Positions 305-41,818 of a stretch of 64,000 bases of DNA are shown here, one piece after another. A program made the position numbers and the translations under genes. Source of the DNA: a virus; UHGV virus genome UHGV-1430452. One strand, written 5' to 3'. Every line of letters begins with the position of its first letter. The first letter of the stretch is position 1. The notes beneath the pieces were generated by a model. That model did no database searches and was not told the origin of the DNA. It was given only the letters and a program-made list of their open reading frames with translations.

Positions 305-3300
305 TTACTTCACTCCTTTCAAATACTTAGATACTGTCGATGTAGAAACTCCCATCTTCTTAGCAATCTGTTCAAGTGTATAGTTAGATGCAGCCATTGC
401 TTTAGCTCTACTAACTTGTGCACTGCTTAGACTGTTGGTTAGTCTAGGAGTTGCTCGTTCTCTAAGGTTATCGATGTCTGTTGTGTTAAGGATTCTCTTA
501 AGCTGATTCTCACTAACAGCACCAGCTTGTATAGCTTCCCATTCTTTGTCACTGATCTCTATGTTACGATCTCTTCTAGAGATAGAGCCAACCTCTTGTC
601 TATACTTATTCAACGCCTGTTGGCTAAGCTTTCTCAACGGTTCTCCTTTAAGCTCTTCACCATGTTCTTCAAGGTAAGCCTTCTTCTTAGCTGCTATCTC
701 GGAATTAGCTTTTCGTTGAGCAGTTCTTTCTTTAATCTTATTGAGATCTGACTTATCGACTCTCTCCATTAAAGACTTAACCTCATCTCTATACGCAGCC
801 TTAGCACTTGCTGTTGTTTCGATCTTTCCTGTGTTAGCCATAGCTAATCTAGCTTTGTTACCAAGAGCTTTCATCTCATTAGCGTAGTCCGCATAGATAA
901 GTTCCATAGGATGTCTAGCTTTAGATACTAATTTATAAGCATCATCAGTCTCAGCCATCTTAGTACTTTGCTGCATACGGGTTTTAGTACGATATGTAAT
1001 ATCACCAGCGGCATTAGTATAGGTTACTTTCCCAGTGACGGGGTCTTTTTTCTCAATAGGGTTATACCTTTCGTAAGCTGCCTTATCTTTGGGATCATAT
1101 TCAATCTTCTTGCCATCAGCTGTTCGCACGGTAATAAGACCGGTCTTCTTATCTCGTTTTCTATCGACATAATATAGATCGTCGGCCTTCTTCCAAAGCT
1201 TGGCTCCATCTGGTTTGGTGGGGTCATAATCTTTACTACCTGGGATGTTTATTTTATATGAGCCTTGTCTTTTCTCAACTGAATATTGTCCCTTTGATCT
1301 TGATAAAATGGTAGAAGCTCCACCTGATCTTTCATTTCCGTCATCGTCAATACGAACCTGATACTTCTTTTTAAGTGCAGCAATATTGTTATCTATCTCA
1401 CTTTGTTTGTAATCAAGATGATGTTTCTCAGCATCAATAACAACCATGCTATGCTTAACTGCTCTTGCCAATTCTTTTTCATCAGCTCCAGCTAAAGTCA
1501 TATCAGTAATAAGATTGGATACAACACCCATCTGAGTTCCAGTGTTTTTCATGATGGGATATGCTTTTCCATTACGATAATAACGAACATTACCATCTGC
1601 ATCCTTCTTAGCAACACCACCATATTCAACCTTAGGATCAAATCCTTCAAGATCTTCAAGAGGTCGCTTATTAAGAATTTTTACCTTTCCACCTGGATCA
1701 TTGGTAGGAATACACATAACAGTATCGCCATCAAAGTCTGCACCTGAAAGCTGATCAGCAATCTTATGATTAATGCCGACTGCATCGATACTTTGTTTGC
1801 CAATTATTTTATCTCCCAGTGGATTCTTATTGTTAACTGTTAAGATAGGAATTTCAAATCGTCCGCCATGAGGATAACGAATAAGAGCGAGCTTAGTTCC
1901 ACTCTCGTAGTTTGGAGCATATACTTCATTGTCTTTTAAAGAGTTTATTGGAATAATAACGTGGTACTTCTGTCCAGGTAACGCTGCTGCTTTTAAATGT
2001 ACAGCCGCTGCATCGCAGCTATCTGCAAATTTCTCAAGCATATGTTTCTTAATAGTAGGATTAGTAATAGACATATACTCATCAAACTCAGCAAACTTAT
2101 CTTTCTTAGCAAGATCTAACTGTTTCTTAGCTAGAGTCTGTGACTGTTTAGCCAGGAACTGAGATGGTAATGCGTCCTGCCAATCATCCCAATCTCCTTC
2201 ATCGGATCTCTTATTAATGAGACCTAATTTCTTCTTACCGGTCTTAGGATCGTCATACCAATACTGTCCACCCTTGTCAGCATCTTTTATAAGAGAGCCA
2301 AATGGATTGTCTGGATCATCTTTCTTAATATTTTTAAGAACCGTACTTGTTTTATCGCCTAAAGCTGGAGTACCTTTTTTCTTATTCGTATTAAATATGA
2401 CATCTACTCCATCAGGCATGTTGTCAGAATATACTGCCATACCTTTAAGATAATGAGTTCCATCTACAAGAATACGAACCTGTGAATATCGTGAATCACC
2501 GAGATCAAGATCTTTACATCCTCTGCGAAGTTCAATGATACCGTCCTTATCAATACCCTTAAATCCATCAGCACCGACATCGTCTGCATATCGAACCATT
2601 AAACGTTTTGAATCAAGACTTGCAGGATATGTAAACTTCTTCTGGAATGTATCTCCTCCGTCTATTGATTCATAATCGTTAATTGTCTTTACTCTATCGT
2701 AGTCGTAGATTTCTTTATGTGCCGTTCCTGGTTTACAAAGAACTTTCTGGATGGTCTGTTGTCCTTTTGTATTTATCTGAGGAATACCACCAGTATACAC
2801 AGGATAACCTTCTGCTTTCTGTAAGTAATCAAGAGCAGTATTCAATCGTTCTTTGGATATGCCAAGAGATTTTTCAACACCAGCTGTTACATCGATCATA
2901 CCTTTTTGATCAACATGCTCTCGCAGAAAATCTACAGTCTCCATTGCCTGATGCATACGGTCTTCAGACTTAGGATTAAGAAGAGACCTTACTGTGGACT
3001 CTGGAATACCCATTTCTCTACCGATGGCAGTTGCTCCAAGTCCATCTTCTTTTAAAGATTTAGCTCTAGCTACCTGTTGTAATCTTTCTTCATAACCAGC
3101 CCAACTAATCTGCCTTCTATATTCTGTAGTTGTTAAGTCCATGGATTTAGCTATCGCATTATCTCCGGTCCAGGTCTTACCATTATCATCAGTGTAAGTA
3201 AAACCGGCTTTCTTAAGCTCTTTAACTCTTGCGAGGAAATCGGAACCATGTTGGTATCTATCTTTTCCACTTCCATAAGGATACCTACCGCTGCGGCGAG

Positions 3301-3475
3301 GCATACCATAATGCATAAGTTCATCTTCATTCGCGCTGTCTAAGCGATCAGACCAACCAAAATAAGAAAGGATCTCGTCAGCAACGGTGAACTCTTCATC
3401 GCTGTGCTCAAGATCCTCTTCTCCAAATATAGATTCTACAAGTTCGTTCAACGGAGGTTTCTCTAAGAACTCCAT
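305..3475 (-). CDS. single-chain two-barrel RNA polymerase homolog (YonO/RdRP-like) with N- and C-terminal HTH modules
   Basis: Beta-like DPBB signature YLKGMAVYSDNMPDGVDVIFNTN. Beta-prime-like signature LIRYPHGG...LSGADFDGDTVMCIP (DFDGD encoded ~1723-1740). HTH-like segments LGATAIGREMGIPESTVRSLLNP and YTLEQIAKKMGVSTSTVSKYLKG. Confidence 0.65.
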   Translation of the reverse strand: MEFLEKPPLNELVESIFGEEDLEHSDEEFTVADEILSYFGWSDRLDSANEDELMHYGMPRRSGRYPYGSGKDRYQHGSDFLARVKELKKAGFTYTDDNGKTWTGDNAIAKSMDLTTTEYRRQISWAGYEERLQQVARAKSLKEDGLGATAIGREMGIPESTVRSLLNPKSEDRMHQAMETVDFLREHVDQKGMIDVTAGVEKSLGISKERLNTALDYLQKAEGYPVYTGGIPQINTKGQQTIQKVLCKPGTAHKEIYDYDRVKTINDYESIDGGDTFQKKFTYPASLDSKRLMVRYADDVGADGFKGIDKDGIIELRRGCKDLDLGDSRYSQVRILVDGTHYLKGMAVYSDNMPDGVDVIFNTNKKKGTPALGDKTSTVLKNIKKDDPDNPFGSLIKDADKGGQYWYDDPKTGKKKLGLINKRSDEGDWDDWQDALPSQFLAKQSQTLAKKQLDLAKKDKFAEFDEYMSITNPTIKKHMLEKFADSCDAAAVHLKAAALPGQKYHVIIPINSLKDNEVYAPNYESGTKLALIRYPHGGRFEIPILTVNNKNPLGDKIIGKQSIDAVGINHKIADQLSGADFDGDTVMCIPTNDPGGKVKILNKRPLEDLEGFDPKVEYGGVAKKDADGNVRYYRNGKAYPIMKNTGTQMGVVSNLITDMTLAGADEKELARAVKHSMVVIDAEKHHLDYKQSEIDNNIAALKKKYQVRIDDDGNERSGGASTILSRSKGQYSVEKRQGSYKINIPGSKDYDPTKPDGAKLWKKADDLYYVDRKRDKKTGLITVRTADGKKIEYDPKDKAAYERYNPIEKKDPVTGKVTYTNAAGDITYRTKTRMQQSTKMAETDDAYKLVSKARHPMELIYADYANEMKALGNKARLAMANTGKIETTASAKAAYRDEVKSLMERVDKSDLNKIKERTAQRKANSEIAAKKKAYLEEHGEELKGEPLRKLSQQALNKYRQEVGSISRRDRNIEISDKEWEAIQAGAVSENQLKRILNTTDIDNLRERATPRLTNSLSSAQVSRAKAMAASNYTLEQIAKKMGVSTSTVSKYLKGVK

Positions 3476-4757: not shown

Positions 4758-5195
4758 TTAATCTATAGCTTCAAAGTGTAGACCTTTCGTATTGTTGTAG
4801 AAATCGTAGTTACAGCATTTACTTATTGTGGCTTCGTTCATTCCTATAGCTTTACTGCATTCCCTGATAGATTCATAAACTTCTCCAGTTTCCACAATAC
4901 GAATCTTTTTATTGCATCGCCTCCTTTCCAAATTATCAATTCTATTGTTACGTTTGTTACCATCGATATAACCGACACATGGTTTTCCTGGTTCTTCATC
5001 AAGAAATGCGTCAGCCACTAGTCGACCAACGCGCTTTGTTATTCTTCTGCCGTTCTCCTTGACCTTCACTGTTTCGTAACCCTTGTTATCAAGGCATGGA
5101 GTAAGTATTCTTCCAGTCTTTGAGTTCCTAACTCTTCCTTCGCTGCTTACCTCATATCCTTCAGCAATATTACTATCGATCCATTGTTCTTCCAT
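4758..5195 (-). CDS. NUMOD4/HNH-like homing endonuclease paralog with degenerate HNH motif
   Basis: N-terminal W..I..GYEVSSEGRVRN (NUMOD4). Central VGYIDGNKRNNRIDNLE, where Tyr replaces the first His of the HNH_3 motif. C-terminal ETGEVYESIRECSKAIGMNEATISKC (NUMOD1-like HTH). Confidence 0.7.
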   Translation of the reverse strand: MEEQWIDSNIAEGYEVSSEGRVRNSKTGRILTPCLDNKGYETVKVKENGRRITKRVGRLVADAFLDEEPGKPCVGYIDGNKRNNRIDNLERRRCNKKIRIVETGEVYESIRECSKAIGMNEATISKCCNYDFYNNTKGLHFEAID

Positions 5196-5206
5196 CGATA
5201 ACCTCC

Positions 5207-5713
5207 TTATTCTACTTTCTCAAACGTGTAACCTCCGCAAGTTCTCAATCTTCCTCGTAAATACTGTGACAACATACTTTGACTTATCCCAAGCGTTTTA
5301 GCACATTCGTTCAAAGATTCATATACCTCTCCGTTCTCTTTACATCTAACTTTTATTCGATTACTTCTACCACCACCATATGGTTTCATCAATCCATCTC
5401 GTATGGCGTATTGCACATTTTCTTTTCTTGTACACCATTCAAGATTATCTGCGTGGTTATTTGTTTTATCTCCATCTTTGTGATGAACATCTAGACCTGG
5501 ATAAGGTCCGCCTAGAAATGCTTCGGCCACGAGAATATTAACTCTCTTTTGAAACCCATATCCGCATCTAGATAATGTTACAGTTTTATAACCTTTGCTG
5601 TCAGTTCCTTGTTTTAGAATTCTTCTAGTATCGATATTCCTAACCTTGCCAGTATTACTAACTTCATATTGCGAACCAAAATCATGCACCGCCTCCCATT
5701 CTTCAACTTTCAT
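5207..5713 (-). CDS. HNH homing endonuclease (NUMOD4 + HNH + NUMOD1-like HTH)
   Basis: QYEVSNTGKVRN, then VHHKDGDKTNNHADNLEW (intact HNH), then ENGEVYESLNECAKTLGISQSMLSQYL. Confidence 0.8.
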   Translation of the reverse strand: MKVEEWEAVHDFGSQYEVSNTGKVRNIDTRRILKQGTDSKGYKTVTLSRCGYGFQKRVNILVAEAFLGGPYPGLDVHHKDGDKTNNHADNLEWCTRKENVQYAIRDGLMKPYGGGRSNRIKVRCKENGEVYESLNECAKTLGISQSMLSQYLRGRLRTCGGYTFEKVE

Positions 5714-6529: not shown

Positions 6530-7027
6530 TTAAATGATATCTTTATGTTCACCTTTAAACCATAAAGAACCATCCTCGAAACCTTCAATCAGTACACAAG
6601 TTCCGACAATATCGGTTTCGTGCTTATTATGTTCCACAACCAAACGATTACCTACTGTTTTCCATGACGATAAAGCTCGTTCGTATTTTACTTTTGTATT
6701 ATACGCAGACACATATCTCTTTTCGTAACCGTCCAATCTCTGTTTTAATTTCTTTACCTCATCACCATCCGGTTTCTCTTTTTCAGTTTGCTCTTTCAAT
6801 CTGTCAAGAGTTTCCGTGATATTGTAAGGTAATTCCTTCAATCTGTTCTTGGAAGTACTCAAGTTTTTTGCTGCTTGCTTATGTAAATAATTCTCAAGCT
6901 TATCGATCTTGTCGATAATGTTCTTTGCGGTATCAATCACGATCCAATTAGAACCAAGTTTTGTACCTAAATAAATAATTTCGTTTTCTTCCTGTTTCTT
7001 TAAAAAGTTGATAAATGTTGTTTTCAT
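6530..7027 (-). CDS. hypothetical protein, 165 aa
   Basis: Uninterrupted ORF preceded by a promoter motif (7061-7088). No family recognised. Confidence 0.65.
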   Translation of the reverse strand: MKTTFINFLKKQEENEIIYLGTKLGSNWIVIDTAKNIIDKIDKLENYLHKQAAKNLSTSKNRLKELPYNITETLDRLKEQTEKEKPDGDEVKKLKQRLDGYEKRYVSAYNTKVKYERALSSWKTVGNRLVVEHNKHETDIVGTCVLIEGFEDGSLWFKGEHKDII

Positions 7028-7088
7028 AAATATACCCCTTTCTTTAAATAAACTATTTTTCTATAAAGGGAGATGTTTATTTAGCGAG

Positions 7089-7529
7089 TTAATCCATGTT
7101 CACTAATTCGTGAATTGAACATTTCAATGCTCTCGCCATTTTTATCAGATTACGAGAATTCGGAGTGGCTAGACCGTTTGTGTATTTACTTATCGTAACC
7201 TGAGTGACACCTATCTTTTCAGCTAATCGATCTTGTGTCATAGCTACGTTTCTCATTTTCCGATTTAGATTACGAGCAAATATCTTTCTCCATTCTTCTT
7301 CTGAAATGTCAATTGAATCTTCGTTGCCTGGATCATGAATCAGATAGGCTTGTCTATTAAGAAAATCATAAGCATACTTTTTACCGCCTTTGATCTTTAC
7401 CGTGATCTCTAATTGTGCACTAGGATACCAATCTAACATTTCTTCCGCTAGATTAGGATAATCCTGACAAAATGCTTCATATACGGGTTTCCAATATTTT
7501 TTACCGTCATTCATCTTAAGTCCCTCCAT
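7089..7529 (-). CDS. XRE-family HTH DNA-binding protein
   Basis: C-terminal MTQDRLAEKIGVTQVTISKYTNGLATPNSRNLIKMARALKCSIHELV. It sits directly beside the iteron array. Confidence 0.75.
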   Translation of the reverse strand: MEGLKMNDGKKYWKPVYEAFCQDYPNLAEEMLDWYPSAQLEITVKIKGGKKYAYDFLNRQAYLIHDPGNEDSIDISEEEWRKIFARNLNRKMRNVAMTQDRLAEKIGVTQVTISKYTNGLATPNSRNLIKMARALKCSIHELVNMD

Positions 7530-7542
7530 TTCTTAAAGATTG

Positions 7543-7969
7543 AATTATGTGCAGACCGAAATTCGTGAAAAATAAAAAAAATACATTTTTAAATTAATAT
7601 ACAACTACTTTATACTTTGGTTATATAACTAAAGTATAAAGTTACCTTACAACAATATATAAAGAAAAAATTATTTTTTACGAATTATGTGCAGACCGAA
7701 ATTCATTTTTACCGTTTTTAGGGCCAAAATGACCGAAAATAGCCAATTTAGCCCCATTTTTGACGAAAAGTGCCGAATTATTAGCAGACCAAAAATAATT
7801 ATTAGCAGACCAAAATTCTATTTTACCATCATTTTCTTATTTATTAGCAGACCAAAAATACCATTTTCCTATTTATTAGCAGACCGAAATTCGGAATTAT
7901 TAGCAGACCAAAAATAGCAAAAACTGAATTATTAGCAGACCAAAAATAATTATTAGCAGACCAAAATTC
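7543..7969. repeat. iteron array: 9 copies of ~21-bp unit (A/T)ATTATTAGCAGACC(A/G)AAA(A/T)T
   Basis: Copies at 7543, 7683 (TGTGCAGACCGAAATTC variant), 7776, 7798, 7839, 7871, 7894, 7926 and 7948. All are direct, and the region is non-coding and AT-rich. Confidence 0.85.
7607..7642. promoter_or_regulatory. 36-bp near-perfect palindrome inside the iteron region
   Basis: ACTTTATACTTTGGTTATATAACTAAAGTATAAAGT with one mismatched pair. It is flanked by A/T runs between iteron copies 1 and 2. Confidence 0.8.
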
Positions 7970-7977
7970 GGCATATC

Positions 7978-8262
7978 TTACACATAATCGTCCTCATCTA
8001 TGTCGTCTTCATACTCAAATTCATCATTATAATCGTCACTACCAGATCCATATAACTCTTTTAAAGCTTCTTGACGTTTGTTAATACTATCGATAGATGC
8101 TTTATATGTACTGATTCTGATAAACTCCGACATAGACATTCCGCTAAGTCTAGCTGCCCTCTCTATAGACGAATACTCCTCGTCATTGCATTTAGAGAAA
8201 ATAGGTTTTCTTCTCGCTCCAAACTTCAACGGCCTCCCACGTTTCTTTTTAACTTCTTCCAT
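7978..8262 (-). CDS. ribbon-helix-helix-like DNA-binding protein with acidic tail
   Basis: KKKRGRPLKFG...SKCNDEEYSSIERAARLSGMSMSEFIRIS. Paralogous to 9504..9674 and 12151..12354. Confidence 0.6.
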   Translation of the reverse strand: MEEVKKKRGRPLKFGARRKPIFSKCNDEEYSSIERAARLSGMSMSEFIRISTYKASIDSINKRQEALKELYGSGSDDYNDEFEYEDDIDEDDYV

Positions 8263-8268
8263 AAAATA

Positions 8269-8430
8269 TCAATCCTCCTCGCGAGCACTAGACGAACCAT
8301 AACGATCTAATTCAATATCTACACCCTGCAAATTATCATAATTATGTATGGTAAGATCTGTCGATACCGTACCACCAAGCAATAAATCACCGATATCCTC
8401 AATACTAAGTTTTACAATAATTCTACTCAT
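8269..8430 (-). CDS. hypothetical small protein, 53 aa
   Basis: Hand-translated MSRIIVKLSIEDIGDLLLGG...SSSAREED. GGAGG RBS. The stop TGA lies inside the next gene's RBS cassette. Confidence 0.5.
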   Translation of the reverse strand: MSRIIVKLSIEDIGDLLLGGTVSTDLTIHNYDNLQGVDIELDRYGSSSAREED

Positions 8431-9221: not shown

Positions 9222-9482
9222 TTATCTCACATCAACGTTGCATCCAAAATTAATCAGATAATCGGTAGTACAACCCAACACATGAGACATTCTAGCGATA
9301 ACATCTATTCTAGGGGTACGTTTACATCTCATATAATTAGACATAGCCGACTCAGATATACCGATTAATTTAGCCAATTCTTTTTGATTAATGCCGCATA
9401 AGTCCATACGGTAATTAAGCTTTTCAACGAAGCGTTTTCGCCATTCAATTTCACTAATAGATTTTATAGGAGTCATTTCCAT
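9222..9482 (-). CDS. XRE-family HTH protein
   Basis: INQKELAKLIGISESAMSNYMRCKRTPRIDVIARMSHVLGCTTDYLI. Confidence 0.75.
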   Translation of the reverse strand: MEMTPIKSISEIEWRKRFVEKLNYRMDLCGINQKELAKLIGISESAMSNYMRCKRTPRIDVIARMSHVLGCTTDYLINFGCNVDVR

Positions 9483-9503: not shown

Positions 9504-9674
9504 TTACTTCTCTTCTTGGTACATTCTCTCTAAAGCAGTTCTAAATACATCAGCAGCACTCATACCTGTTGACTTACGAACCTTCTCTAAAATATCTAAT
9601 TCTTTCCTATTAACACGAACTAGATATCTTGTATCTCTAGGATCTGCTATCGGTTTTCTACCTCTCTTCGCCAT
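9504..9674 (-). CDS. ribbon-helix-helix-like small protein, 56 aa
   Basis: Hand-translated MAKRGRKPIADPRDTRYLVRVNRKELDILEKVRKSTGMSAADVFRTALERMYQEEK. Clear paralog of 12151..12354. Confidence 0.6.
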   Translation of the reverse strand: MAKRGRKPIADPRDTRYLVRVNRKELDILEKVRKSTGMSAADVFRTALERMYQEEK

Positions 9675-9762: not shown

Positions 9763-9928
9763 CCACATCAATTAATCTTTAAGATAACCAACTTTATATA
9801 AGAATCTTCCTACAACTGCCCAAAACTTCTGTCTGAGTGTCATATAGATCCCTCCTTTCTATTTGGTTTCTTTTCATAATAGGCGTTGTTAATATCACGA
9901 AAGAAAAAGAGAGAAGAAGTATATCTCA

Positions 9929-10052
9929 GCTACACGTTTCTCTGCATCCATTTAAAGACACATTCACTGGTCAGTTCCAGTCCCACTAATATACTTTGAT
10001 GCTACACGTTTCTCCATACATAAGTATGTTCACTGGTCAGTTCCAGTCCCAC
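9929..10052. repeat. tandem direct repeat (58 + 52 bp) in a non-coding gap
   Basis: GCTACACGTTTCTC...TTCACTGGTCAGTTCCAGTCCCAC occurs twice (9929-9986 and 10001-10052). Each copy contains hairpin ACTGG/CCAGT. Confidence 0.8.
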
Positions 10053-10134
10053 ATCAACTTTTATTCTTCTCTCATAATATAAAATGTATTTTTCGCGAAT
10101 AAAAAGAAGAGGCTGTAAAAGCCCCTTACTTGTT

Positions 10135-21524: not shown

Positions 21525-21971
21525 TTAAATATAGTCCAATATGTTTCCATCCACATTGAAGTCTAATAATGCCGTATTCTTATAACCATTGATAAAATCG
21601 AAATTACATTCATTCATTAAACCAAAATCTACGAAATTGTCTCCAATAGGATTCTCCTCGTCATAAACCCAGCCAACAACTGCTCCTGCTTTTGTTCTCG
21701 GAATGCCTAACGTATCGTAGACATCATTCAGAAATAAATGTCCTCTTGATCTCAGCAAAACATTACAATATTTCTGCTGATCTTTCAAAAAGTTCATATT
21801 ATACTCTGGATCTTTAATCCACCCAATACAGCTATCATCGAAAAACCTAGCATATTGACTAAAGTTTTCGGTTTTGTCAACCCTGTTTCCTGGATACTCT
21901 TCTTCTGATTTCAGATTGAATAATTTCTTTAATTCCTCATCATCAATTTCAATAGTTACATTAATCTTCAT
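21525..21971 (-). CDS. paralog-family protein (C-terminal domain shared with 44029..44967)
   Basis: FFDDSCIGWIKDPEYNMNFLKDQQKYCN...LNDVYDTLGIPRTKAGAVVGWVYDEENPIGDNFVDFG closely matches the 44029..44967 C-terminus. Start set at MKINV (AGGAG RBS). Confidence 0.65.
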   Translation of the reverse strand: MKINVTIEIDDEELKKLFNLKSEEEYPGNRVDKTENFSQYARFFDDSCIGWIKDPEYNMNFLKDQQKYCNVLLRSRGHLFLNDVYDTLGIPRTKAGAVVGWVYDEENPIGDNFVDFGLMNECNFDFINGYKNTALLDFNVDGNILDYI

Positions 21972-22032
21972 AATTATTCTCCTTTCAAATATAAACATAT
22001 TGTTTCATTAAAGGAGATGTTTACGACGCGAG

Positions 22033-37310: not shown

Positions 37311-37601
37311 CTATCGTAAAGATTTTGGGACAAGGCTTTTGATAATCTTTTTCTGATGCTCGTCCAGATCGTGATATAGAGTGAAACCCGTTGCCCCATT
37401 ATACTCATCGCCAAACTGTTTGTAGTACATAGATTGTTTCCATAACTCCGGATACTCTTTTTTGTACTTTGCGAGTTCTTTTGCTTTCTTGTCATACTGT
37501 TTATCCGAAATTATATTATTATCTAACTCGTAATAAATATATGAATGAAGTATGATATATCTTTGCAAGTAATCTATGTATTCGAGGGTTGTTAGTTCCA
37601 T
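37311..37601 (-). CDS. stand-alone protein resembling NAD-ligase (LigA) N-terminal domain Ia
   Basis: LHSYIYYELDNNIISDKQYDKKAKELAKYKKEYPELWKQS follows the LigA pattern H.Y.YYV.D.P.ISD.EYD.L..EL..LE...PEL. Confidence 0.4.
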   Translation of the reverse strand: MELTTLEYIDYLQRYIILHSYIYYELDNNIISDKQYDKKAKELAKYKKEYPELWKQSMYYKQFGDEYNGATGFTLYHDLDEHQKKIIKSLVPKSLR

Positions 37602-40600
37602 GGCAGCTCTACATCTTCATCATCGAATGGAATTTCCTCAGGAGATCCTTCCGGTATGTTCATGAAGTCTGGTAAATGAGAATCTCTAAAAGGAGGTTCA
37701 TGCCGATCTGAAGCATCCCAAGGCGGAGTACCAACATATGGATCGTCTGATATGAACCACTCAGCGTCTCCGTATTGACCAATAGTTTCAAGAGCATCAT
37801 CCACAAGCTTTCGATAATATGAACGATCAATATTTTCTTCATTTCCCGGAGACATCATTAACTCGGATTCAAGCCAACGGAAACCAGTTGTTCCTGTAGC
37901 TGCATAATATTTACCGTTCTGTTCTCGCATCAATAGTCCTCCACCCTTTCCAGGCTTAACCGGACAAAATTGCCCAACTTTACCTACGAAATGATAGTCA
38001 TGACCTTCAGCTATTAAATCGTTTAATCTTCGACACTCACTTTCGAAAGTTGTGTCCGATAACTTACCTTTCCTGTACTTATCTTCAAGTTTGGATAGTT
38101 CTTTTTCATACTCGGATACATCTGGAAGTTTTTCGTTCATATCCAAATATAAAGCAGATTTTACTGAGAATGCTTCGCACATATCTTTCAACTCAATTGG
38201 TTCTTTACTGAACAGTGTTTTAAATACATACGGAACTGCAAACTGTTTTCCAGTAGCTGTCCATTCTCCGGCATTCTTTCCATCTTTAAACCTAGCCACG
38301 TACACAGCATCATTTACTAAACAGAATTTTTCAAAGTTAGCCTCTGTTTCAAATGTATATCCGTATTCTTTACCGAATTTGGTTACGAAATCAATAATAT
38401 CAGGAGTAGCATCGGGTATCTTTATGGAATCTGTCTTGATATGACAAACAGTAAATCCTCGTTTCTGAACTTCTCTTTTCAATAATGTCATGAAGAGAGC
38501 TCCTCTTTTGGCAACAATGTTATCCTTATTTCTAGGATCTCTAAATTCATTTACGAAGCCAGCTGATGTCAAACCATAAATGGAATTGATAACAATCTTA
38601 AGTGCCTGCGCTAAATCAGCAGCCTGTTCTTCATTTAAGTATGGTTTCAACGCTCCACCTAATAATTGTCCAGCTGTTTCAAAGTCTTTATGCTTAATTG
38701 CAACACGAGCTTTTACAATATCCTCAAACCGTTTTGTATATTCTGGTCCAAATAGACATTCGAATATAATACTGTGAGGATGCTGAGAAGCAATGTCTCC
38801 ATCCCATACATTACCGTAATGCCCAGGTTCAGAGTAAACCCGACCGCCTTCTCCAATGGCTTCGCCTAAATATGTTGATTTACCAAACTCAAAAGTATAG
38901 CCTTTAAAGAATGGAAGAATGCTATAACCTTCTGGAAGCTTTTCGCCAGGAACGTAAGATCGATATAATGGAAGACCCTCAGAATCAAATACTCTGAAAT
39001 CATAATCATCTCCGAATTTAATTCTATATTCATCATAACGATCTGAGCTAACCGGTTCCGCCAAGTATCTATAGTTGAATACATTCTGCGGTTTTTTATT
39101 ATTTCCAAATATAATTCTTTTAGAAAGAGTATTTGTCGTATCATTAACTGTAACGTTTGTAATATCATGTAAGAGTTTTACAAGATCAACCTGAATCTGT
39201 CTAGCAACAAAGTCTGCTTTTCTTGCATTGAATACAGCTTCCGTCGCAATGACATCATTATCGCAATACTCAGCAACCTTTGCCCATAATTCTTCTGGAA
39301 CTGGTTGATCCCAAGGAAGACCAAGCTCTTGATGATGAATACCCAGTTCAATCTCCCATTTCTTTAAACTCTGTTTCACAGTTGACATATCATATACATC
39401 AATGTAACCAAGATTATATGCCTCACCAAACATGCCATTATCACGGCTTCCCTTTGGAGCATTAATAATTCTTTGAGATAACTTATATATTTCCTCATTT
39501 GTGTATCCCATAAGTCTAGCATAAATGATATGTCTGTCGTATTTACGTCCATTAAAATCAACAAGTTTAAACTTTAGAAGATTTTCTATTTCTGCTGGTG
39601 TAGGATTAATTAATCTAACTACTGTTTTTCCTTCTCCAGCAAACTTATAGTTTACCAAAAATAAATTTGGGAATACCTCACAATCATAGAATACAAGATC
39701 GTCAGTATCACCCTCATTACTTGTCTCTGAAGCCTCTTCACTCTTAAACGCCATCTGATTAACTAACTTCAAACACTCATCAGCCTGGTTACTACTACTC
39801 GCCGCCAAAGCAAATACAGCATTTTTCATATCAGACACATCATATCCAATACCACTCTCATAAGCCTCATCCAAAAGTTTCTTAATCATTTGAATACTTG
39901 GAGCTGTGTTACCCATAATTTCTTTATTCAGATGTTTCTTAAGAACGGATCTCAAATATTTCTCATTCTTAATACCATCAAAGTTAATCACATTTTTCAC
40001 CTCTTTCAACGGAAGACCTGAGCTAATTGTACGAATAACAAGATTGACACACTTAGTAAGTTTTCTTCTAAGAGATGTTTTACCGGTAAATACCTTAATC
40101 TCGATATCCTCATCAAATATACGACTTAATTCACTCACATCACCGTTATAAATATAATGAAGATGAATACCTCCACCACTTTTGCTTAACTCAGCATATG
40201 TTGGAGGCCATTTACTAGCTGCTTCAAGATTCTTCTCGAAACATTTATTACCATTCTCGTCCTTAATATCAAAGTCAATAACTACATGATTTTCAGGGAC
40301 CTTGACGTAATGAAGTTTTGATGTGTCAAGTTCTGATAGGGTAGTTGAAACTTCATCCCATGGCTTCGTCGGAGTTTCTTTTGAAGTAGCATATTGAGCT
40401 GGACAATCAGAACATTCTTTATCAAAAATAGACTCCTGTTCTTCAAATATAAGCCAGCTCTCAGTTTTCTCATCTCCAATAGGTTTCTCTGCTTTAACCT
40501 TTTTCTTCCCACCAATAGAGTCTTCGAAAATATCAGTCTTAAAACCGTCGTAATAACTCAGCAGCTTACTTCCATCTTCTTTCTCCACCTTCTCATCAAA

Positions 40601-41818
40601 TTCCAAAAAATAGTTTCTCAACTCGTCTTTGAATTTTGTCTTAGAAAATGGATACGGCACTTTTGCTTCCTCACAGTAGTTTTTATACATCTCCCATGCT
40701 GCTTTTAGCGTAGTACCATCTTCTTTCTTGAAGACACTGAATGAATCACATACGAAGTTATAAAAGTCATTAGAAGCCATAAGCATGTCCTTCGGAGCGT
40801 AAGTATCGTAATACTCTGGATCTTCTTTAAAGACTTGTAAACAATGATATGCGATTGCTCCCAACTCAAAATCAACCTGTTTGGTCAATCTACGATATTC
40901 TCGAATCGGTATCTTGTTTCCAGTAGGACGAACGTCAATCAAACGCCTTAGTAAACCAGACTTAGCATCAGTGATCTTAACAGGTGTGTTTGTACCCATA
41001 AATAAAAAACATTTGAATCTTGTTTCATATTGTCCTTTAAATTTTTCATTCATGGTCATTATCTCGTGTGAAATCACCGAGTTTAAGCGCGTATTATCTT
41101 CGATTTTTGATAAATCACCATCATGTTGTATCGCTACAAGAGGGTTATTCTTAAACGGTTCCAGAGCGAAAACATTATTCGGATTACCCAAAGCTTTTGC
41201 GTCAAAAGAACAACAATATCCTTCAAATAATTTCTCGATAATATTTATGATAGTTGATTTACCAGTACCACCAGCTCCGTAAAGCACCAGGAACTTTTGA
41301 AGTATTTTTGATTCCCCAGATACAACGGAGCCGATAGCCCATTCTATTTTACGTCGTTCTTCTTCGGAATATAGAGTACCGATGAGTTTATCCCATGCAG
41401 AAATATCGCCAGGTTCGAGAGGATACGGGAGTCTCTTGCTTGCGAAATTCTCTCTGCTTAATTCTGTGTTTGAAAATATAAGTTCATCATCGAGTACAGC
41501 AAAGTTATCACGCATCTGTTTCTGACAATATTTATGGAACTTATCGATTGAGCCACTGTCAGCATCCCACATATACTTAATTACAGGAGTACCTTCAAGA
41601 CGTCCTTCATTTTCAGCGACATATCTATCAAGTTCTCTATCTACAAGACGGGTTACATCGTCTTCATCTGTACTCCACATCTTTCGATCTTCATCCCAGA
41701 TAGCGTAAAAGTCCCTACCTCGAATCATGAGATCTTTAGATTTCAACATTTTGAACTTAGGAGAAACATCAACACTGCTTTTATTCGTCTTCGTTGATAC
41801 TGTCATGAAGTCCAACAT
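37592..41818 (-). CDS. fused SF3 helicase / AEP primase-polymerase / family-B DNA polymerase
   Basis: Walker A YGAGGTGKST. AEP motifs VVIDFDIKD and SGGGIHLHY. PolB ExoI FYDCEVF, ExoII YCDNDV, motif A DGDIASQHPHS, motif B KIVINSIYG, motif C HIKTDSI. Confidence 0.8.
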   Translation of the reverse strand: MLDFMTVSTKTNKSSVDVSPKFKMLKSKDLMIRGRDFYAIWDEDRKMWSTDEDDVTRLVDRELDRYVAENEGRLEGTPVIKYMWDADSGSIDKFHKYCQKQMRDNFAVLDDELIFSNTELSRENFASKRLPYPLEPGDISAWDKLIGTLYSEEERRKIEWAIGSVVSGESKILQKFLVLYGAGGTGKSTIINIIEKLFEGYCCSFDAKALGNPNNVFALEPFKNNPLVAIQHDGDLSKIEDNTRLNSVISHEIMTMNEKFKGQYETRFKCFLFMGTNTPVKITDAKSGLLRRLIDVRPTGNKIPIREYRRLTKQVDFELGAIAYHCLQVFKEDPEYYDTYAPKDMLMASNDFYNFVCDSFSVFKKEDGTTLKAAWEMYKNYCEEAKVPYPFSKTKFKDELRNYFLEFDEKVEKEDGSKLLSYYDGFKTDIFEDSIGGKKKVKAEKPIGDEKTESWLIFEEQESIFDKECSDCPAQYATSKETPTKPWDEVSTTLSELDTSKLHYVKVPENHVVIDFDIKDENGNKCFEKNLEAASKWPPTYAELSKSGGGIHLHYIYNGDVSELSRIFDEDIEIKVFTGKTSLRRKLTKCVNLVIRTISSGLPLKEVKNVINFDGIKNEKYLRSVLKKHLNKEIMGNTAPSIQMIKKLLDEAYESGIGYDVSDMKNAVFALAASSSNQADECLKLVNQMAFKSEEASETSNEGDTDDLVFYDCEVFPNLFLVNYKFAGEGKTVVRLINPTPAEIENLLKFKLVDFNGRKYDRHIIYARLMGYTNEEIYKLSQRIINAPKGSRDNGMFGEAYNLGYIDVYDMSTVKQSLKKWEIELGIHHQELGLPWDQPVPEELWAKVAEYCDNDVIATEAVFNARKADFVARQIQVDLVKLLHDITNVTVNDTTNTLSKRIIFGNNKKPQNVFNYRYLAEPVSSDRYDEYRIKFGDDYDFRVFDSEGLPLYRSYVPGEKLPEGYSILPFFKGYTFEFGKSTYLGEAIGEGGRVYSEPGHYGNVWDGDIASQHPHSIIFECLFGPEYTKRFEDIVKARVAIKHKDFETAGQLLGGALKPYLNEEQAADLAQALKIVINSIYGLTSAGFVNEFRDPRNKDNIVAKRGALFMTLLKREVQKRGFTVCHIKTDSIKIPDATPDIIDFVTKFGKEYGYTFETEANFEKFCLVNDAVYVARFKDGKNAGEWTATGKQFAVPYVFKTLFSKEPIELKDMCEAFSVKSALYLDMNEKLPDVSEYEKELSKLEDKYRKGKLSDTTFESECRRLNDLIAEGHDYHFVGKVGQFCPVKPGKGGGLLMREQNGKYYAATGTTGFRWLESELMMSPGNEENIDRSYYRKLVDDALETIGQYGDAEWFISDDPYVGTPPWDASDRHEPPFRDSHLPDFMNIPEGSPEEIPFDDEDVELPWN

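Follow-up and report, generated by a model that had tools for sequence, protein, structure and literature searches.

What is known about proteins that occupy arrays of short direct repeats? Arrays bound by ribbon-helix-helix (RHH) proteins are well known on plasmids, where they act as centromeres and operators. For the ParR/parC (type II; R1, pSK41 and the Clostridium perfringens pCW3-like plasmids) and ParG/parH (TP228) systems, two reports describe cooperative binding, about ten direct repeats in helical phase, a flanking or overlapping promoter, and, among related replicons, many protein/site classes of mutual specificity (PMC9426499, PMC3130281). ArtA of pSK41 is reported to be an RHH repressor acting through repeated sites (PMC2777438), and the three reports indicate that RHH proteins on promoter-flanking repeat arrays (ParR/parC, ParG/parH, ArtA) also regulate transcription (PMC3130281, PMC2777438, PMC9426499). 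The RHH fold and repeated sites are found again in the omega protein of pSM19035 and in Arc and Mnt of the P22 immI region. Omega is an RHH array binder around a promoter that uses 7-10 heptads and is also a transcriptional regulator, while immI is a secondary immunity region of a temperate phage, the specificity of which differs between relatives.

Other families offer further points of comparison. At ori-lambda, the SaPI ori, and pSC101 or P1 oriR-incA, phased bent repeats lie by meltable A/T-rich DNA and a palindrome; in the SaPI ori the iterons flank the A/T-rich stretch, and in P1 incA the array comes directly after the gene of its binder. The initiators of these replicons are winged-helix Rep/O proteins or helicases, and at iteron origins specificity is exchanged as a module made of the binder and its sites. 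Apl of phage 186 and Cox of P2 are small proteins that bind 6-7 direct repeats about one helical turn apart and serve as architectural repressors at a switch. NikA, MobC, and TraY bind repeats beside an inverted repeat at oriT, bend the DNA, and promote local melting.

Here we describe a locus that shares features with each of these systems and is identical to none. The window, meaning the whole stretch of DNA analyzed (64,000 nucleotides of the virus genome UHGV-1430452), comes from a temperate siphophage of the gut that encodes a serine integrase, a P4-primase/PolB fusion, and a YonO-like RNA polymerase. Like ParR/parC and ParG/parH, the locus pairs a small RHH protein with direct repeats. 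Unlike them, it belongs to an integrase-bearing phage in which no ParM or ParA was found among the window ORFs of at least 150 aa; its array lies between the RHH gene and an XRE-HTH gene, its RHH protein carries an N-terminal AT-hook, and its DNA includes a separate conserved dyad and an enclosed segment that is extremely A/T-rich. The RHH fold and repeated sites are shared with omega, ArtA, Arc, and Mnt, but the sites here are 21-23 bp long with a 7-11-bp core, are spread over ~430 bp, and are joined to a fixed, probably bent spacer and a bracket of ~135 bp. In addition, the predicted target is the XRE protein and not an antirepressor of known type. Phased bent repeats by meltable A/T-rich DNA and a palindrome recall the iteron origins; however, the binder here is a 94-aa RHH protein, the dyad recurs as a gene-proximal element, and whereas iteron origins lie in or next to replication genes, this array is 14-30 kb away from the helicase and polymerase genes. 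The Xis-like Apl and Cox have a winged-helix fold and also act at attP, whereas here the protein is RHH and the serine recombinase is 50 kb away. Finally, NikA, MobC, and TraY represent the best family match of the RHH protein, yet no relaxase was found among the neighboring and large ORFs, the NCBIfam scores are far under their cutoffs, and the context is that of a phage.

Results

The locus and the distant features that bear on it are as follows.

7089..7514, minus strand: XRE-HTH gene, 141 aa, downstream of the array; product predicted to bind the dyad
7542..7564, no strand assigned: proximal bracket site, directly upstream of the HTH ribosome-binding site
7565..7681, no strand assigned: A/T-rich segment between the bracket sites, 117 bp, 15.4% GC
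7607..7642, no strand assigned: 36-bp dyad in which 17 of 18 positions pair; conserved core AGTTATATAACY
7643..7665, minus strand: conserved block TTATATATTG..TGTAAGG, directly upstream of the dyad on the gene strand
7682..7704, no strand assigned: distal bracket site, variant GGTCTGCACATAA on the gene strand
7705..7774, no strand assigned: class-independent spacer, about six A/T tracts in 10-bp phase
7775..7969, no strand assigned: seven-site RHH-type array of direct repeats, each ATTTTTGGTCTGCTAATAAT on the gene strand
7978..8262, minus strand: RHH gene, 94 aa, upstream of the array; product the presumed binder of all nine sites
37592..41818, strand not given: P4-primase/PolB fusion, 30 kb from the array
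52372..52405, minus strand: second dyad cassette AGTTTAAACAAAAGTTATATAACTAAAGTTAAAG; the ribosome-binding site of the early gene 51991..52350 follows directly
56053..58312, strand not given: large serine integrase and repressor module, which points to integration

A repeat search returned nine direct repeats of 21-23 nt that span 7542-7969 and are absent from the rest of the 64 kb, in agreement with the nine copies counted in the first-pass annotation. The 23-nt units start at 7542, 7682, 7775, 7796, 7838, 7870, 7894, 7926, and 7947. The first two are the same variant, GAATTATGTGCAGACCGAAATTC; for the remaining seven the sequence is (G/T)A(A/T)TTATTAGCAGACC(A/G)AAA(A/T)T(A/C). When the 64 kb were searched with a 17-mer at up to three mismatches, just these nine sites were recovered, on a single strand, against 0.47 expected by chance, and the count of nine was reached in none of 100 shuffles. 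The motif does not precede any other operon of the window, which also holds the whole replication module and in which this is the sole iteron-like noncoding array. On the gene strand, each array site consists of a class-specific core, GGTCTGC(T)A, between A/T tracts. The start-to-start spacings within the array (21, 42, 32, 24, 32, and 21 bp) place the sites in helical register, mostly two, three, or four turns apart, and the same holds in relatives. The A/T tracts of the spacer, which read CGTCAAAAAT, GGGGCTAAAT, TGGCTATTTT, CGGTCATTTT, GGCCCTAAAAA, and CGGTAAAAAT on the gene strand, give an AA/TT periodicity with its power maximum at period 10, and the DNA at 7705-7774 is probably intrinsically bent. 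The sequence of the spacer is kept across repeat classes, and in most loci it sets a distance of 92-95 bp between the distal bracket site and the last array copy.

The two variant copies were earlier reported to bracket an A/T-rich stretch, and the base composition of the intervening DNA bears this out. They enclose 117 bp directly upstream of the HTH gene, and the core of the proximal site is 43 nt from the HTH ATG. By nearest-neighbor energy, 7568-7687 is the least stable duplex of the 64 kb, ranking first at 60-, 100-, and 120-bp windows (−122 kcal per 120 bp versus a mean of −150.5, sd 5.8), and none of the other promoter-bearing gaps of this phage comes near the enclosed DNA in A/T content or instability. 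The near-perfect palindrome annotated at 7607-7642 has no equal in the window: pairing at even 16 of 18 positions arose in just one of 200 shuffles, and 17 of 18 in none of 100 random 64-kb sequences with the composition of the gap. Like the spacer, the dyad is kept across repeat classes. In the adjoining block, TATAT and TAAG are invariant in nine loci; the block, a possible promoter element, recurs with the second dyad copy and in the distant relative FP_oengus. The second copy, 45 kb from the first, is surrounded by neither RHH sites nor an A/T-rich stretch. A copy that lies upstream of an early gene without the repeats fits an operator better than an origin palindrome, and the dyad is a probable candidate operator of the XRE-HTH protein, to which we predict that it binds.

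How is the HTH gene transcribed? A sigma-70 scan of the gap gave four matches versus 7.9 expected, no better than shuffles, and hence no credible promoter. The 30-nt promoter motif of the phage is absent as well from the gap and the repeats (best PWM score −2.5 bits versus at least 12.9 for 35 genuine sites), which rules out the repeats or the gap as a carrier of that motif. Thirty-five other transcription units are preceded by the phage-type motif; as the gap has none, the HTH gene appears to be controlled differently.

Pfam profiles confirm the XRE-HTH and RHH genes that the first-pass annotation placed on either side of the array; the orientation and one boundary require correction. Both genes are on the minus strand, so that the order on the gene strand is RHH gene, array, XRE-HTH gene, and the HTH gene most likely starts with the ATG at 7514, not at 7529, because its homologs are 139-144 aa long and a GGAGGG ribosome-binding site precedes this codon. 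The HTH protein is made up of a small alpha/beta N-terminal domain and a C-terminal Cro/C1-type HTH (Pfam HTH_3, E=4.6e-14) of the P22 C2/434/controller-protein type. Fold searches with its model matched the HTH domain only and returned nothing for the N-terminal alpha/beta domain. Likewise, a tblastn search of plasmids gave only generic HTH matches, among them one in Subdoligranulum that was set aside as an unrelated 60%-GC locus; a scan of GTDB genomes with the HTH alignment gave no match and hence no host, and an exact-protein look-up of the window's HTH protein returned no record.

The RHH protein comprises an N-terminal AT-hook (KKKRGRP), an RHH domain, a long second helix, and a disordered acidic/aromatic tail. 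It matches the Pfam NikA-like family (PF21983) with E=1.3e-8 and 35.3 bits versus a cutoff of 27, and RHH_1 and TacA more weakly, while its NCBIfam MobA, MbpA, and DDP1 scores of 17-21 bits are far under the cutoffs of 80-150. The AF2 monomer contains helices at 27-40 and 44-71 and a disordered tail; its strand region is unstructured, as expected without the dimer partner. Profile searches and the AF2 model revealed no Rep, helicase, loader, or other initiator domain.

Which of the two proteins recognizes the repeats? About 25 related metagenomic loci share the order RHH gene, array, spacer, site, A/T-rich dyad, site, HTH gene. Their repeat cores form at least 11 classes, and the RHH beta-strand changes along with the core. 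For example, PIFSKCN is paired with GGTCTGC, RIVFSCN with GGTATGC, RVVFRCD with GTATGACAA, and KFQLKMT with GGGCTGGACG; further pairs are TLHILVS with TATGTACAT, QLNVRVP with TGTATAGCA, and HISFRVT with TGTGTTACA. The AT-hook and the A/T flanks of the sites are constant through all classes. Locus L062 and the window are near-identical in the spacer, the dyad region, and the HTH gene, whereas their RHH proteins are 51% identical and all nine sites are switched, both bracket sites included; the differences fall at 11 of 36 bracket-site positions versus five of 230 positions elsewhere (Fisher p=1.7e-7). Similarly, the RHH gene, the array, and the core of the distal site are exchanged between L050 and L047 within flanks that are ~99% identical. 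In both comparisons the distal bracket site changes in its core alone, following the RHH class, within DNA that is otherwise the same, and in L062 the core of the proximal site follows the class too. The proximal site is inverted in place in L026, L044, and L047, and the natural mosaics L024 and L050 carry one or both bracket sites that mismatch their RHH class.

As the RHH protein and the sites change together, across classes and in L062, the RHH protein emerges as the binder of the repeats. The nine repeats are almost certainly its docking sites, and we infer physical binding from this covariation. The HTH protein was rejected as a repeat binder. Across the varying repeats its recognition helix (SQVTISKY) stays conserved, and so does the dyad; loci L028 and L029 have nearly identical recognition helices and different cores, and the HTH proteins of the window and L062 are 96% identical, again with different cores. 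Thus the earlier suggestion that a flanking protein binds the repeats holds for the RHH protein and not for the HTH protein. At the level of sequence comparison, the repeats and the dyad are non-random, the architecture and geometry are conserved, and the RHH protein covaries with the sites, whereas the HTH protein and the dyad do not.

The geometry is maintained across classes: spacings of 21, 32, and 42 bp recur within the arrays, 131-148 bp separate one bracket site from the other, and 38-57 nt lead to the ATG. The number of repeats ranges from 4 to 14 among relatives. The module is always found 3-4 kb upstream of an endonuclease-exonuclease-RNA polymerase block, in a group of 90-kb temperate gut siphophages related to Oengusvirus and to an actinophage supercluster with a YonO-like RNA polymerase. 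In FP_oengus, sites flank the A/T-rich stretch though the downstream gene differs. Contig L033, which is from the same phage and 100% identical elsewhere, has an array of two copies in place of seven and is missing the bracketed segment, a collapse that marks assemblies of this region as unreliable in detail. The ends of five contigs fall in or beside the dyad (L020, L032, L034, L028, and L042), and three contigs read through it (L021, L023, and L026). The nearest deposited record, MT835495, has only the RNA polymerase/exonuclease block in common and starts inside the HTH gene, which makes it uninformative for the array. Among 50,697 phage records, no DNA similarity to 7000-8400 was found. In IMG/VR, an exact-motif scan yielded 15 single chance matches and no arrays, and scans with the HTH or the RHH protein alone gave distant relatives only, or none. 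Literature searches returned no description of this element.

Discussion

We propose that the element is best read as a repressosome-like, specificity-swappable switch that controls the HTH gene. We give this proposal an even chance of being correct, and consider a gene switch more likely than a replication origin. The RHH beta-ribbon would read the 7-11-bp class-specific core of each site, and the A/T tracts beside the core would suit the conserved KRGRP of the AT-hook. The seven phased sites would be joined, via the phased A-tract spacer (~94 bp), to the two bracket sites, which would clamp the 117-bp, 15%-GC segment directly ahead of the HTH gene. RHH dimers would assemble cooperatively into a wrapped or looped "repressosome" controlling HTH expression, either by occlusion or by topological control of an enclosed promoter/operator. 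The HTH protein, for its part, may autoregulate through the dyad and may also act on the second dyad at 52.4 kb. We infer the cooperativity, the looping, the direction of regulation, and an immunity-like role. With regard to the last, near-identical phages swap the RHH protein and its sites as one block, and the module thus behaves like an immunity-type specificity determinant.

Several observations count against the proposed switch. The scans for sigma-70 and phage-type motifs found no promoter in the bracketed segment, and the extreme A/T-richness and instability of this DNA set it apart from the other promoter-bearing gaps. Seven extra in-phase sites and a bent spacer exceed the needs of a simple operator. 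The position of the RHH gene, upstream and in the same direction of transcription, is unusual for an autoregulated repressor/operator pair. Finally, the bracket sites of L024 and L050 do not match the RHH class. Phased sites, a bent spacer, and unstable A/T-rich DNA are classic features of origins.

A second reading, which we put forward tentatively, is that the locus is a specificity determinant in which the swappable AT-hook RHH protein and its nine sites license or block the opening of the unstable segment. It has two versions. In one, the RHH protein could be the specificity factor of an origin, which would make it a new class of initiator; in the other, the locus could confer a secondary hetero-immunity through which a resident prophage keeps out just those relatives that share its RHH class.

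A lytic replication origin is a serious, if less likely, rival to the switch. Here RHH-bound iterons and the bent spacer would strain or open the enclosed A/T-rich unwinding element, the P4-type primase/helicase-PolB fusion would be loaded there, the RHH protein would confer specificity for the origin, and the dyad would be a structural or control element. The resemblance to iteron origins to which the first-pass annotation drew attention is real: the repeats are phased, the A-tracts of the spacer are phased, the DNA is the least stable of the window, and a dyad is present, a layout that is analogous to ori-lambda (iterons, A/T-rich stretch, palindrome), the SaPI ori, and pSC101. The conserved geometry, the presence of the array as the only one of its kind alongside the whole replication module, and the retention of the sites around the A/T-rich stretch in FP_oengus despite a different downstream gene are consistent with an origin. 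Modular exchange of binder and sites is also typical of initiator/origin pairs, and local melting is promoted at oriT by RHH proteins of the NikA/MobC type. However, the covarying binder has no helicase-loading or Rep domain detectable by profile searches or in its AF2 model, and we know of no replication initiator with an RHH fold. The distance of the element from the helicase and polymerase genes, the variable copy number, the way in which the proximal site abuts the HTH ribosome-binding site, and the recurrence of the dyad cassette beside a second ribosome-binding site, without repeats or an A/T-rich stretch, likewise argue against an origin. If the deletion in L033 is real, then the element is not an essential origin. 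GC skew displays no shift at the site, a weak or uninformative test given that all genes are on one strand.

It is improbable that the locus is instead the site of another DNA transaction with the RHH protein as an accessory factor, such as an oriT-like nick site, a pac/cos region, or a promoter or enhancer of the YonO-like RNA polymerase. The best family matches of the RHH protein are to relaxosome accessory proteins (Pfam NikA-like and the sub-threshold NCBIfam MobA, DDP1, and MbpA), the contigs that stop at or by the dyad are independent of each other, and the distance to the endonuclease-exonuclease-RNA polymerase block is constant. But repeats and palindromes are expected to end contigs in de Bruijn assemblies, and other contigs run through. 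Moreover, neither a relaxase/HUH protein nor a terminase was found among the neighboring and large ORFs, record coordinates of the actinophage relatives place the physical genome end just after the RNA polymerase gene and not upstream of it, and the repeat motif is confined to this locus and not found ahead of other operons. An attP of the serine integrase, a telomere-resolution site, and a cos/pac site were rejected on three grounds: the integrase is distant, no protelomerase or terminase was found, and contigs read through the site.

The partition site that was first offered as an alternative to an origin fares worse, and we consider it very unlikely. The RHH protein would be of the ParR/ParG/omega type and would be coupled to a segregation NTPase, the array serving as the centromere of a plasmid-like prophage. 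An RHH binder with cognate direct-repeat arrays and many specificity classes does recall ParR/parC and ParG/parH, and the repeats around a promoter-like segment are analogous to parC of plasmid R1, in which repeats flank the promoter. Yet no ParA/ParM/TubZ-like NTPase was found by PHROGs and Pfam searches in the window ORFs of at least 150 aa (~30 kb of the genome is outside the window), or next to the module in any relative. The large serine integrase and repressor point to integration rather than extrachromosomal upkeep, and the array, rather than heading a par operon, follows the RHH gene and precedes the HTH gene. It is next to inconceivable that the repeats arose by chance, through misassembly, or as a non-functional tandem duplication: the collapsed array of L033 speaks for this, but the shuffles never gave nine copies, ~25 independent assemblies from different studies carry differing repeat sequences in the same geometry, and concerted substitutions restricted to the core track the RHH protein, such that conservation and covariation refute this reading.

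Finally, what would this element mean for the phages that carry it? We found no earlier description in the literature of a geometrically fixed, fast specificity-swapping equivalent of the plasmid arrays in a widespread gut phage family. The pairs of RHH beta-strand and DNA core, at least 11 in number, amount to a natural specificity code, and the window and L062 form a clean swap pair for studying the rules of RHH recognition. If the element is simply a regulated promoter, it is still a useful annotation in a phage group that has no mapped regulatory elements. Should it prove to be an origin or to determine immunity, it would explain how cross-talk is avoided between gut phages that are almost the same, and it would be a source of orthogonal protein/DNA parts.

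The repeats and the segment they bracket

What does the gap between the ribbon-helix-helix (RHH) and helix-turn-helix (HTH) genes contain? A repeat search of the window returned a 23-nt unit in nine plus-strand copies, starting at 7542, 7682, 7775, 7796, 7838, 7870, 7894, 7926, and 7947. The copies at 7542 and 7682 are identical to each other (GAATTATGTGCAGACCGAAATTC); the remaining seven carry TTATTAGCAGACC(A/G)AAA. A 17-mer search allowing up to three mismatches found just these nine sites in the 64 kb, on one strand only, against a chance expectation of 0.47, and none of 100 shuffles reached nine, so the nine direct copies reported by the first-pass annotation are borne out. The near-perfect palindrome that it described also holds: 17 of 18 positions pair, the element is unique within the window, and even a 16/18 palindrome was reached in only one of 200 shuffles. 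The two outlying copies do bracket an A/T-rich stretch, as claimed. The bracketed segment (7565-7681) has a GC content of 15.4% and the lowest duplex stability in the whole window at all window sizes tried (-122 kcal per 120 bp versus a mean of -150.5, sd 5.8). The gap as a whole shows high AA/TT periodicity close to 10-10.5 bp, with its maximum in the spacer. All genes at the locus are on the minus strand, and the order along transcription is RHH gene, array, HTH gene. The array lies between these genes as annotated, but the HTH start is most likely 7514 and not 7529, because homologs are 139-144 aa long and GGAGGG precedes that ATG.

7978-8262, minus: RHH gene
7775-7969, plus: array of seven repeats
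7705-7774: spacer
7682-7704, plus: distal bracket site
7607-7642: 36-bp palindrome (dyad)
7542-7564, plus: proximal bracket site
7089-7514, minus: HTH gene

The phage

The window holds most of the genome of a temperate siphophage from the human gut.

305-3475, minus: YonO-like two-barrel RNA polymerase, 1056 aa (PHROG 4291, 1140 bits)
37592-41818, within the 55-kb leftward block: P4-type primase/helicase fused to a B-family polymerase
47958-48031, minus: tRNA gene (Rfam, 62 bits)
52372-52405: second copy of the dyad cassette
56053-58312, plus: repressor and large serine integrase
61271-63703: tail fibre gene
4578-55010, minus: promoter-like motif, e.g. 5950, 6476, 7090, 9903, 10101, 21011, 27788, 37307, 48064, 50677, 51030, 51256, 54481

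The leftward block also encodes a helicase, a single-strand annealing protein and an anaerobic ribonucleotide reductase activase, and ends in an endonuclease, an exonuclease and the RNA polymerase. The RecB-like exonuclease and small endonuclease genes precede the polymerase gene, whose product carries a fused C-terminal HTH resembling sigma region 4. The Oengusvirus/actinophage supercluster has the endonuclease-exonuclease-RNA polymerase block as its signature. The polymerase ties the phage to Faecalibacterium phage FP_oengus and this supercluster (bioRxiv 10.1101/842583); no close relative was found among deposited phages. Four PHROG 2152 paralogs are scattered in the early region (minus; 21525-21998, 44029-44967, 47042-47869, 49330-50106), and two neighbouring free-standing NUMOD4/HNH/I-HmuI-like homing endonuclease genes lie at 4758-5713 (minus), relatives having one to two. 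ARAGORN reads the anticodon of the tRNA as two bases ('ta'), pointing to an unusual loop there. Tandem repeats of 9 and 18 nt in the tail fibre gene (62567-62689) encode a collagen-like Gly-X-Y stretch.

At scores above 12 bits, the gene strand has 35 copies of a ~30-nt phage-specific promoter-like motif, TTCGCGAAAATTACAnnnnCCTATTATGAGA, and the other strand has none. The motif is intergenic, is often preceded by a hairpin and T-run, and has two boxes spaced too closely for a sigma-70 promoter. Relatives and FP_oengus (CGCGATAAAAACATGCCCTTTTATGGGG) share it; the late-gene block of MT835495, the nearest deposited record, does not contain it. The motifs at 10101 and 9903 enclose a noncoding unit of ~175 nt (9900-10075, minus) that ends in a T-run and whose predicted fold has z=-2.45. 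It contains an internal duplication of 66 nt, and a 24-nt repeat (GTGGGACTGGAACTGACCAGTGAA) is present in exact copies at 9963 and 10029. A second RHH/HTH gene pair (9504-9674 and 9222-9482) lies directly downstream, and the unit is a candidate small RNA or set of binding sites for that pair.

A layout shared by relatives

From HTH-protein homologs and scans of metagenome and viral contigs we assembled ~25 loci, all of which share one layout without conservation of the sequence itself. First comes the gene for a small protein whose N-terminal AT-hook, K(K/R)RGRP, precedes an RHH domain. Directly after its stop codon lie 2-12 direct repeats. A spacer follows, in which some six A/T tracts recur in 10-bp phase and whose sequence is independent of repeat type; it leads to one further repeat. 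An A/T-rich stretch with the dyad and a conserved block, TATAT..TAAGG, precedes a final repeat, inverted in some loci, and then the ribosome-binding site and HTH gene. Repeats within arrays are spaced by ~21, 32 or 42 bp; the last array copy is 92-95 bp from the distal bracket site in most loci, the bracket sites are 131-148 bp apart, and the proximal core is 38-57 nt from the ATG. Site number ranges from 4 to 14.

FP_oengus (NC_047916.1) has an analogous gap, in which palindromic TTTGGCCAAAAACCCACTT sites flank an A/T-rich stretch. In this cultured phage the gap is 870 bp annotated as noncoding (26895-27765 of the record), upstream of the endonuclease-exonuclease-polymerase block, and includes an ORF that is missing from the annotation, encodes CxxC motifs and begins near 27217.

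Many independent contigs end within or near the gap (loci L020, L032, L034, L028, L042, and the start of MT835495). L020 and L034 start at the identical base, 18 nt before the dyad, where L034 has a Nextera adapter. These ends probably reflect assembler breakage at the repeats and palindrome; less probably, they mark a preferred DNA end. One metagenomic locus, L033 (OHES01000478.1), is 100% identical to the window across 4.4 kb and differs in 7564-7926. Its seven array copies are collapsed to two, with the junction at the 44-nt exact duplicates 7775/7926, and the entire bracketed segment is missing, the break falling at the 23-nt bracket repeats; either the assembly collapsed here or the contig represents a natural deletion variant mediated by the repeats.

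Repeat specificity

The repeat core varies by locus in at least 11 classes, each with its own beta-strand in the upstream RHH protein. Neither the AT-hook nor the A/T flanks around the sites change from class to class.

RHH beta-strand, repeat core, and loci (L0xx, related metagenomic or viral loci)
PIFSKCN; GGTCTGC; window, L021, L024
RIVFSCN; GGTATGC; L029, L031
RVVFRCD; GTATGACAA; L062
KFQLKMT; GGGCTGGACG; L026, L030
TLHILVS; TATGTACAT; L035, L048
QLNVRVP; TGTATAGCA; L036 group
HISFRVT; TGTGTTACA; L047, L049
RLELRLT; TGTACG(G)TAA; L050
VYVYLS; GCGCACCCAT; L052
ENFRTT; ATGTAACAC; L053
TVTFRLS; CGTATTACAA; L054 group

L062 and the window are near-identical from the spacer via the dyad to the HTH gene (HTH proteins 96% identical), whereas their RHH proteins share only 51% identity. 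All nine L062 sites read GTATGACAATAA, including both bracket sites inside identical flanks, and the two loci differ at 11 of 36 bracket-site positions versus 5 of 230 elsewhere (Fisher p=1.7e-7). Similarly, L050 and L047 are ~99% identical on either side of a region in which the RHH body, the array and the distal bracket-site core differ. As far as comparative analysis goes, these two comparisons show that the RHH protein recognises both array and bracket sites; they exclude physical linkage alone as the source of the covariation. The RHH protein is modelled with two confident helices (27-40, 44-71) and a disordered acidic/aromatic tail that is frequent across classes, not universal.

Relative to the near-identical L037/L036, L044 carries its proximal bracket site in inverted orientation at an unchanged position (TTTTTGTATAGCAGAAAAT versus TTTTCTGCTATACAAAAAA), an observation that extends to L026, L030, L047 and L050, and array sites occur in both orientations in some classes (L052, L054). 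Such inverted sites would fit binding by a two-fold symmetric dimer.

The HTH protein and the dyad

The HTH protein shows no covariation with the repeats: near-identical recognition helices accompany different cores (L028/L029; window/L062), and the helix SQVTISKY and the dyad are both kept across repeat classes. Its domain is of the P22 C2/434/controller-protein type, and proteins of this type bind dyad operators. The second dyad copy abuts the ribosome-binding site of an early gene (51991-52350) and has no repeats around it; an operator serving a small regulon would be expected to show this pattern, whereas a hairpin specific to an origin would not. Between it and a promoter motif sits a tRNA-like stretch (52443-52530, minus; GGAATAG...GGTTCGAATCCCGCGCTATTCCCA) with an acceptor and T-arm; ARAGORN made no call there, and Rfam gave weak tmRNA 3'-end and vault matches (E=0.02-0.16).

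Discussion

What is the function of this element? The comparative data support a putative higher-order RHH-DNA complex: RHH dimers would occupy the phased sites, the bent spacer would fold the array back, and two sites would clamp the highly meltable dyad-bearing segment directly ahead of the HTH gene. We favour a transcriptional, immunity-like switch, giving it an even chance of being right. To our knowledge, every characterised array-binding RHH family is a regulator or adaptor, not an initiator, which argues for a switch, as do the proximal site adjoining the HTH ribosome-binding site and the operator-like behaviour of the dyad, present at two genes. The gap is also the sole large intergenic region without the phage's promoter motif, so the HTH gene would be controlled differently. 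Finally, repeated exchange of a protein together with its sites between near-identical phages is a signature of hetero-immunity modules, and the RHH protein and its sites are exchanged in this way. Against a switch, no promoter was identified in the gap, and the architecture is more elaborate than a simple operator requires.

A replication origin is the strongest alternative, a serious though less likely one. Origin anatomy is matched very well by the phased iterons, the bend, the palindrome and the lowest duplex stability in the window, which contains the whole replication module and no second array of this kind. An origin is, however, harder to reconcile with a binder of the RHH type, a distance of 14-30 kb to the replication genes, a further dyad copy elsewhere, and a site number that varies from 4 to 14 among relatives. 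The loss of the bracketed segment from L033, otherwise 100% identical, also counts against an origin, with little weight because it may be assembly collapse. Relaxosome-like, packaging or polymerase-enhancer roles, improbable even when pooled, lack their required partner genes, and the contig ends at the gap look like the usual assembler effect of repeats and palindromes. The partition site suggested by the first-pass annotation is very improbable, since no NTPase was found among the window's ORFs of 150 aa or more and the phage carries an integrase. Chance or artefact is excluded by the conservation and covariation.

Functionally, the element most resembles ParR/parC, ParG/parH and omega, in which RHH proteins are combined with repeat arrays around a promoter and specificity classes are numerous; its anatomy comes closest to ori-lambda and the SaPI ori. 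The element is a demonstrable member of none of these, and the searchable literature yielded no account of the element, the AT-hook RHH family or the phage promoter motif. The proposed RHH binding is directly testable with the natural specificity code and the swap pair formed by the window and L062. An origin or immunity role, if true, would be a real surprise.
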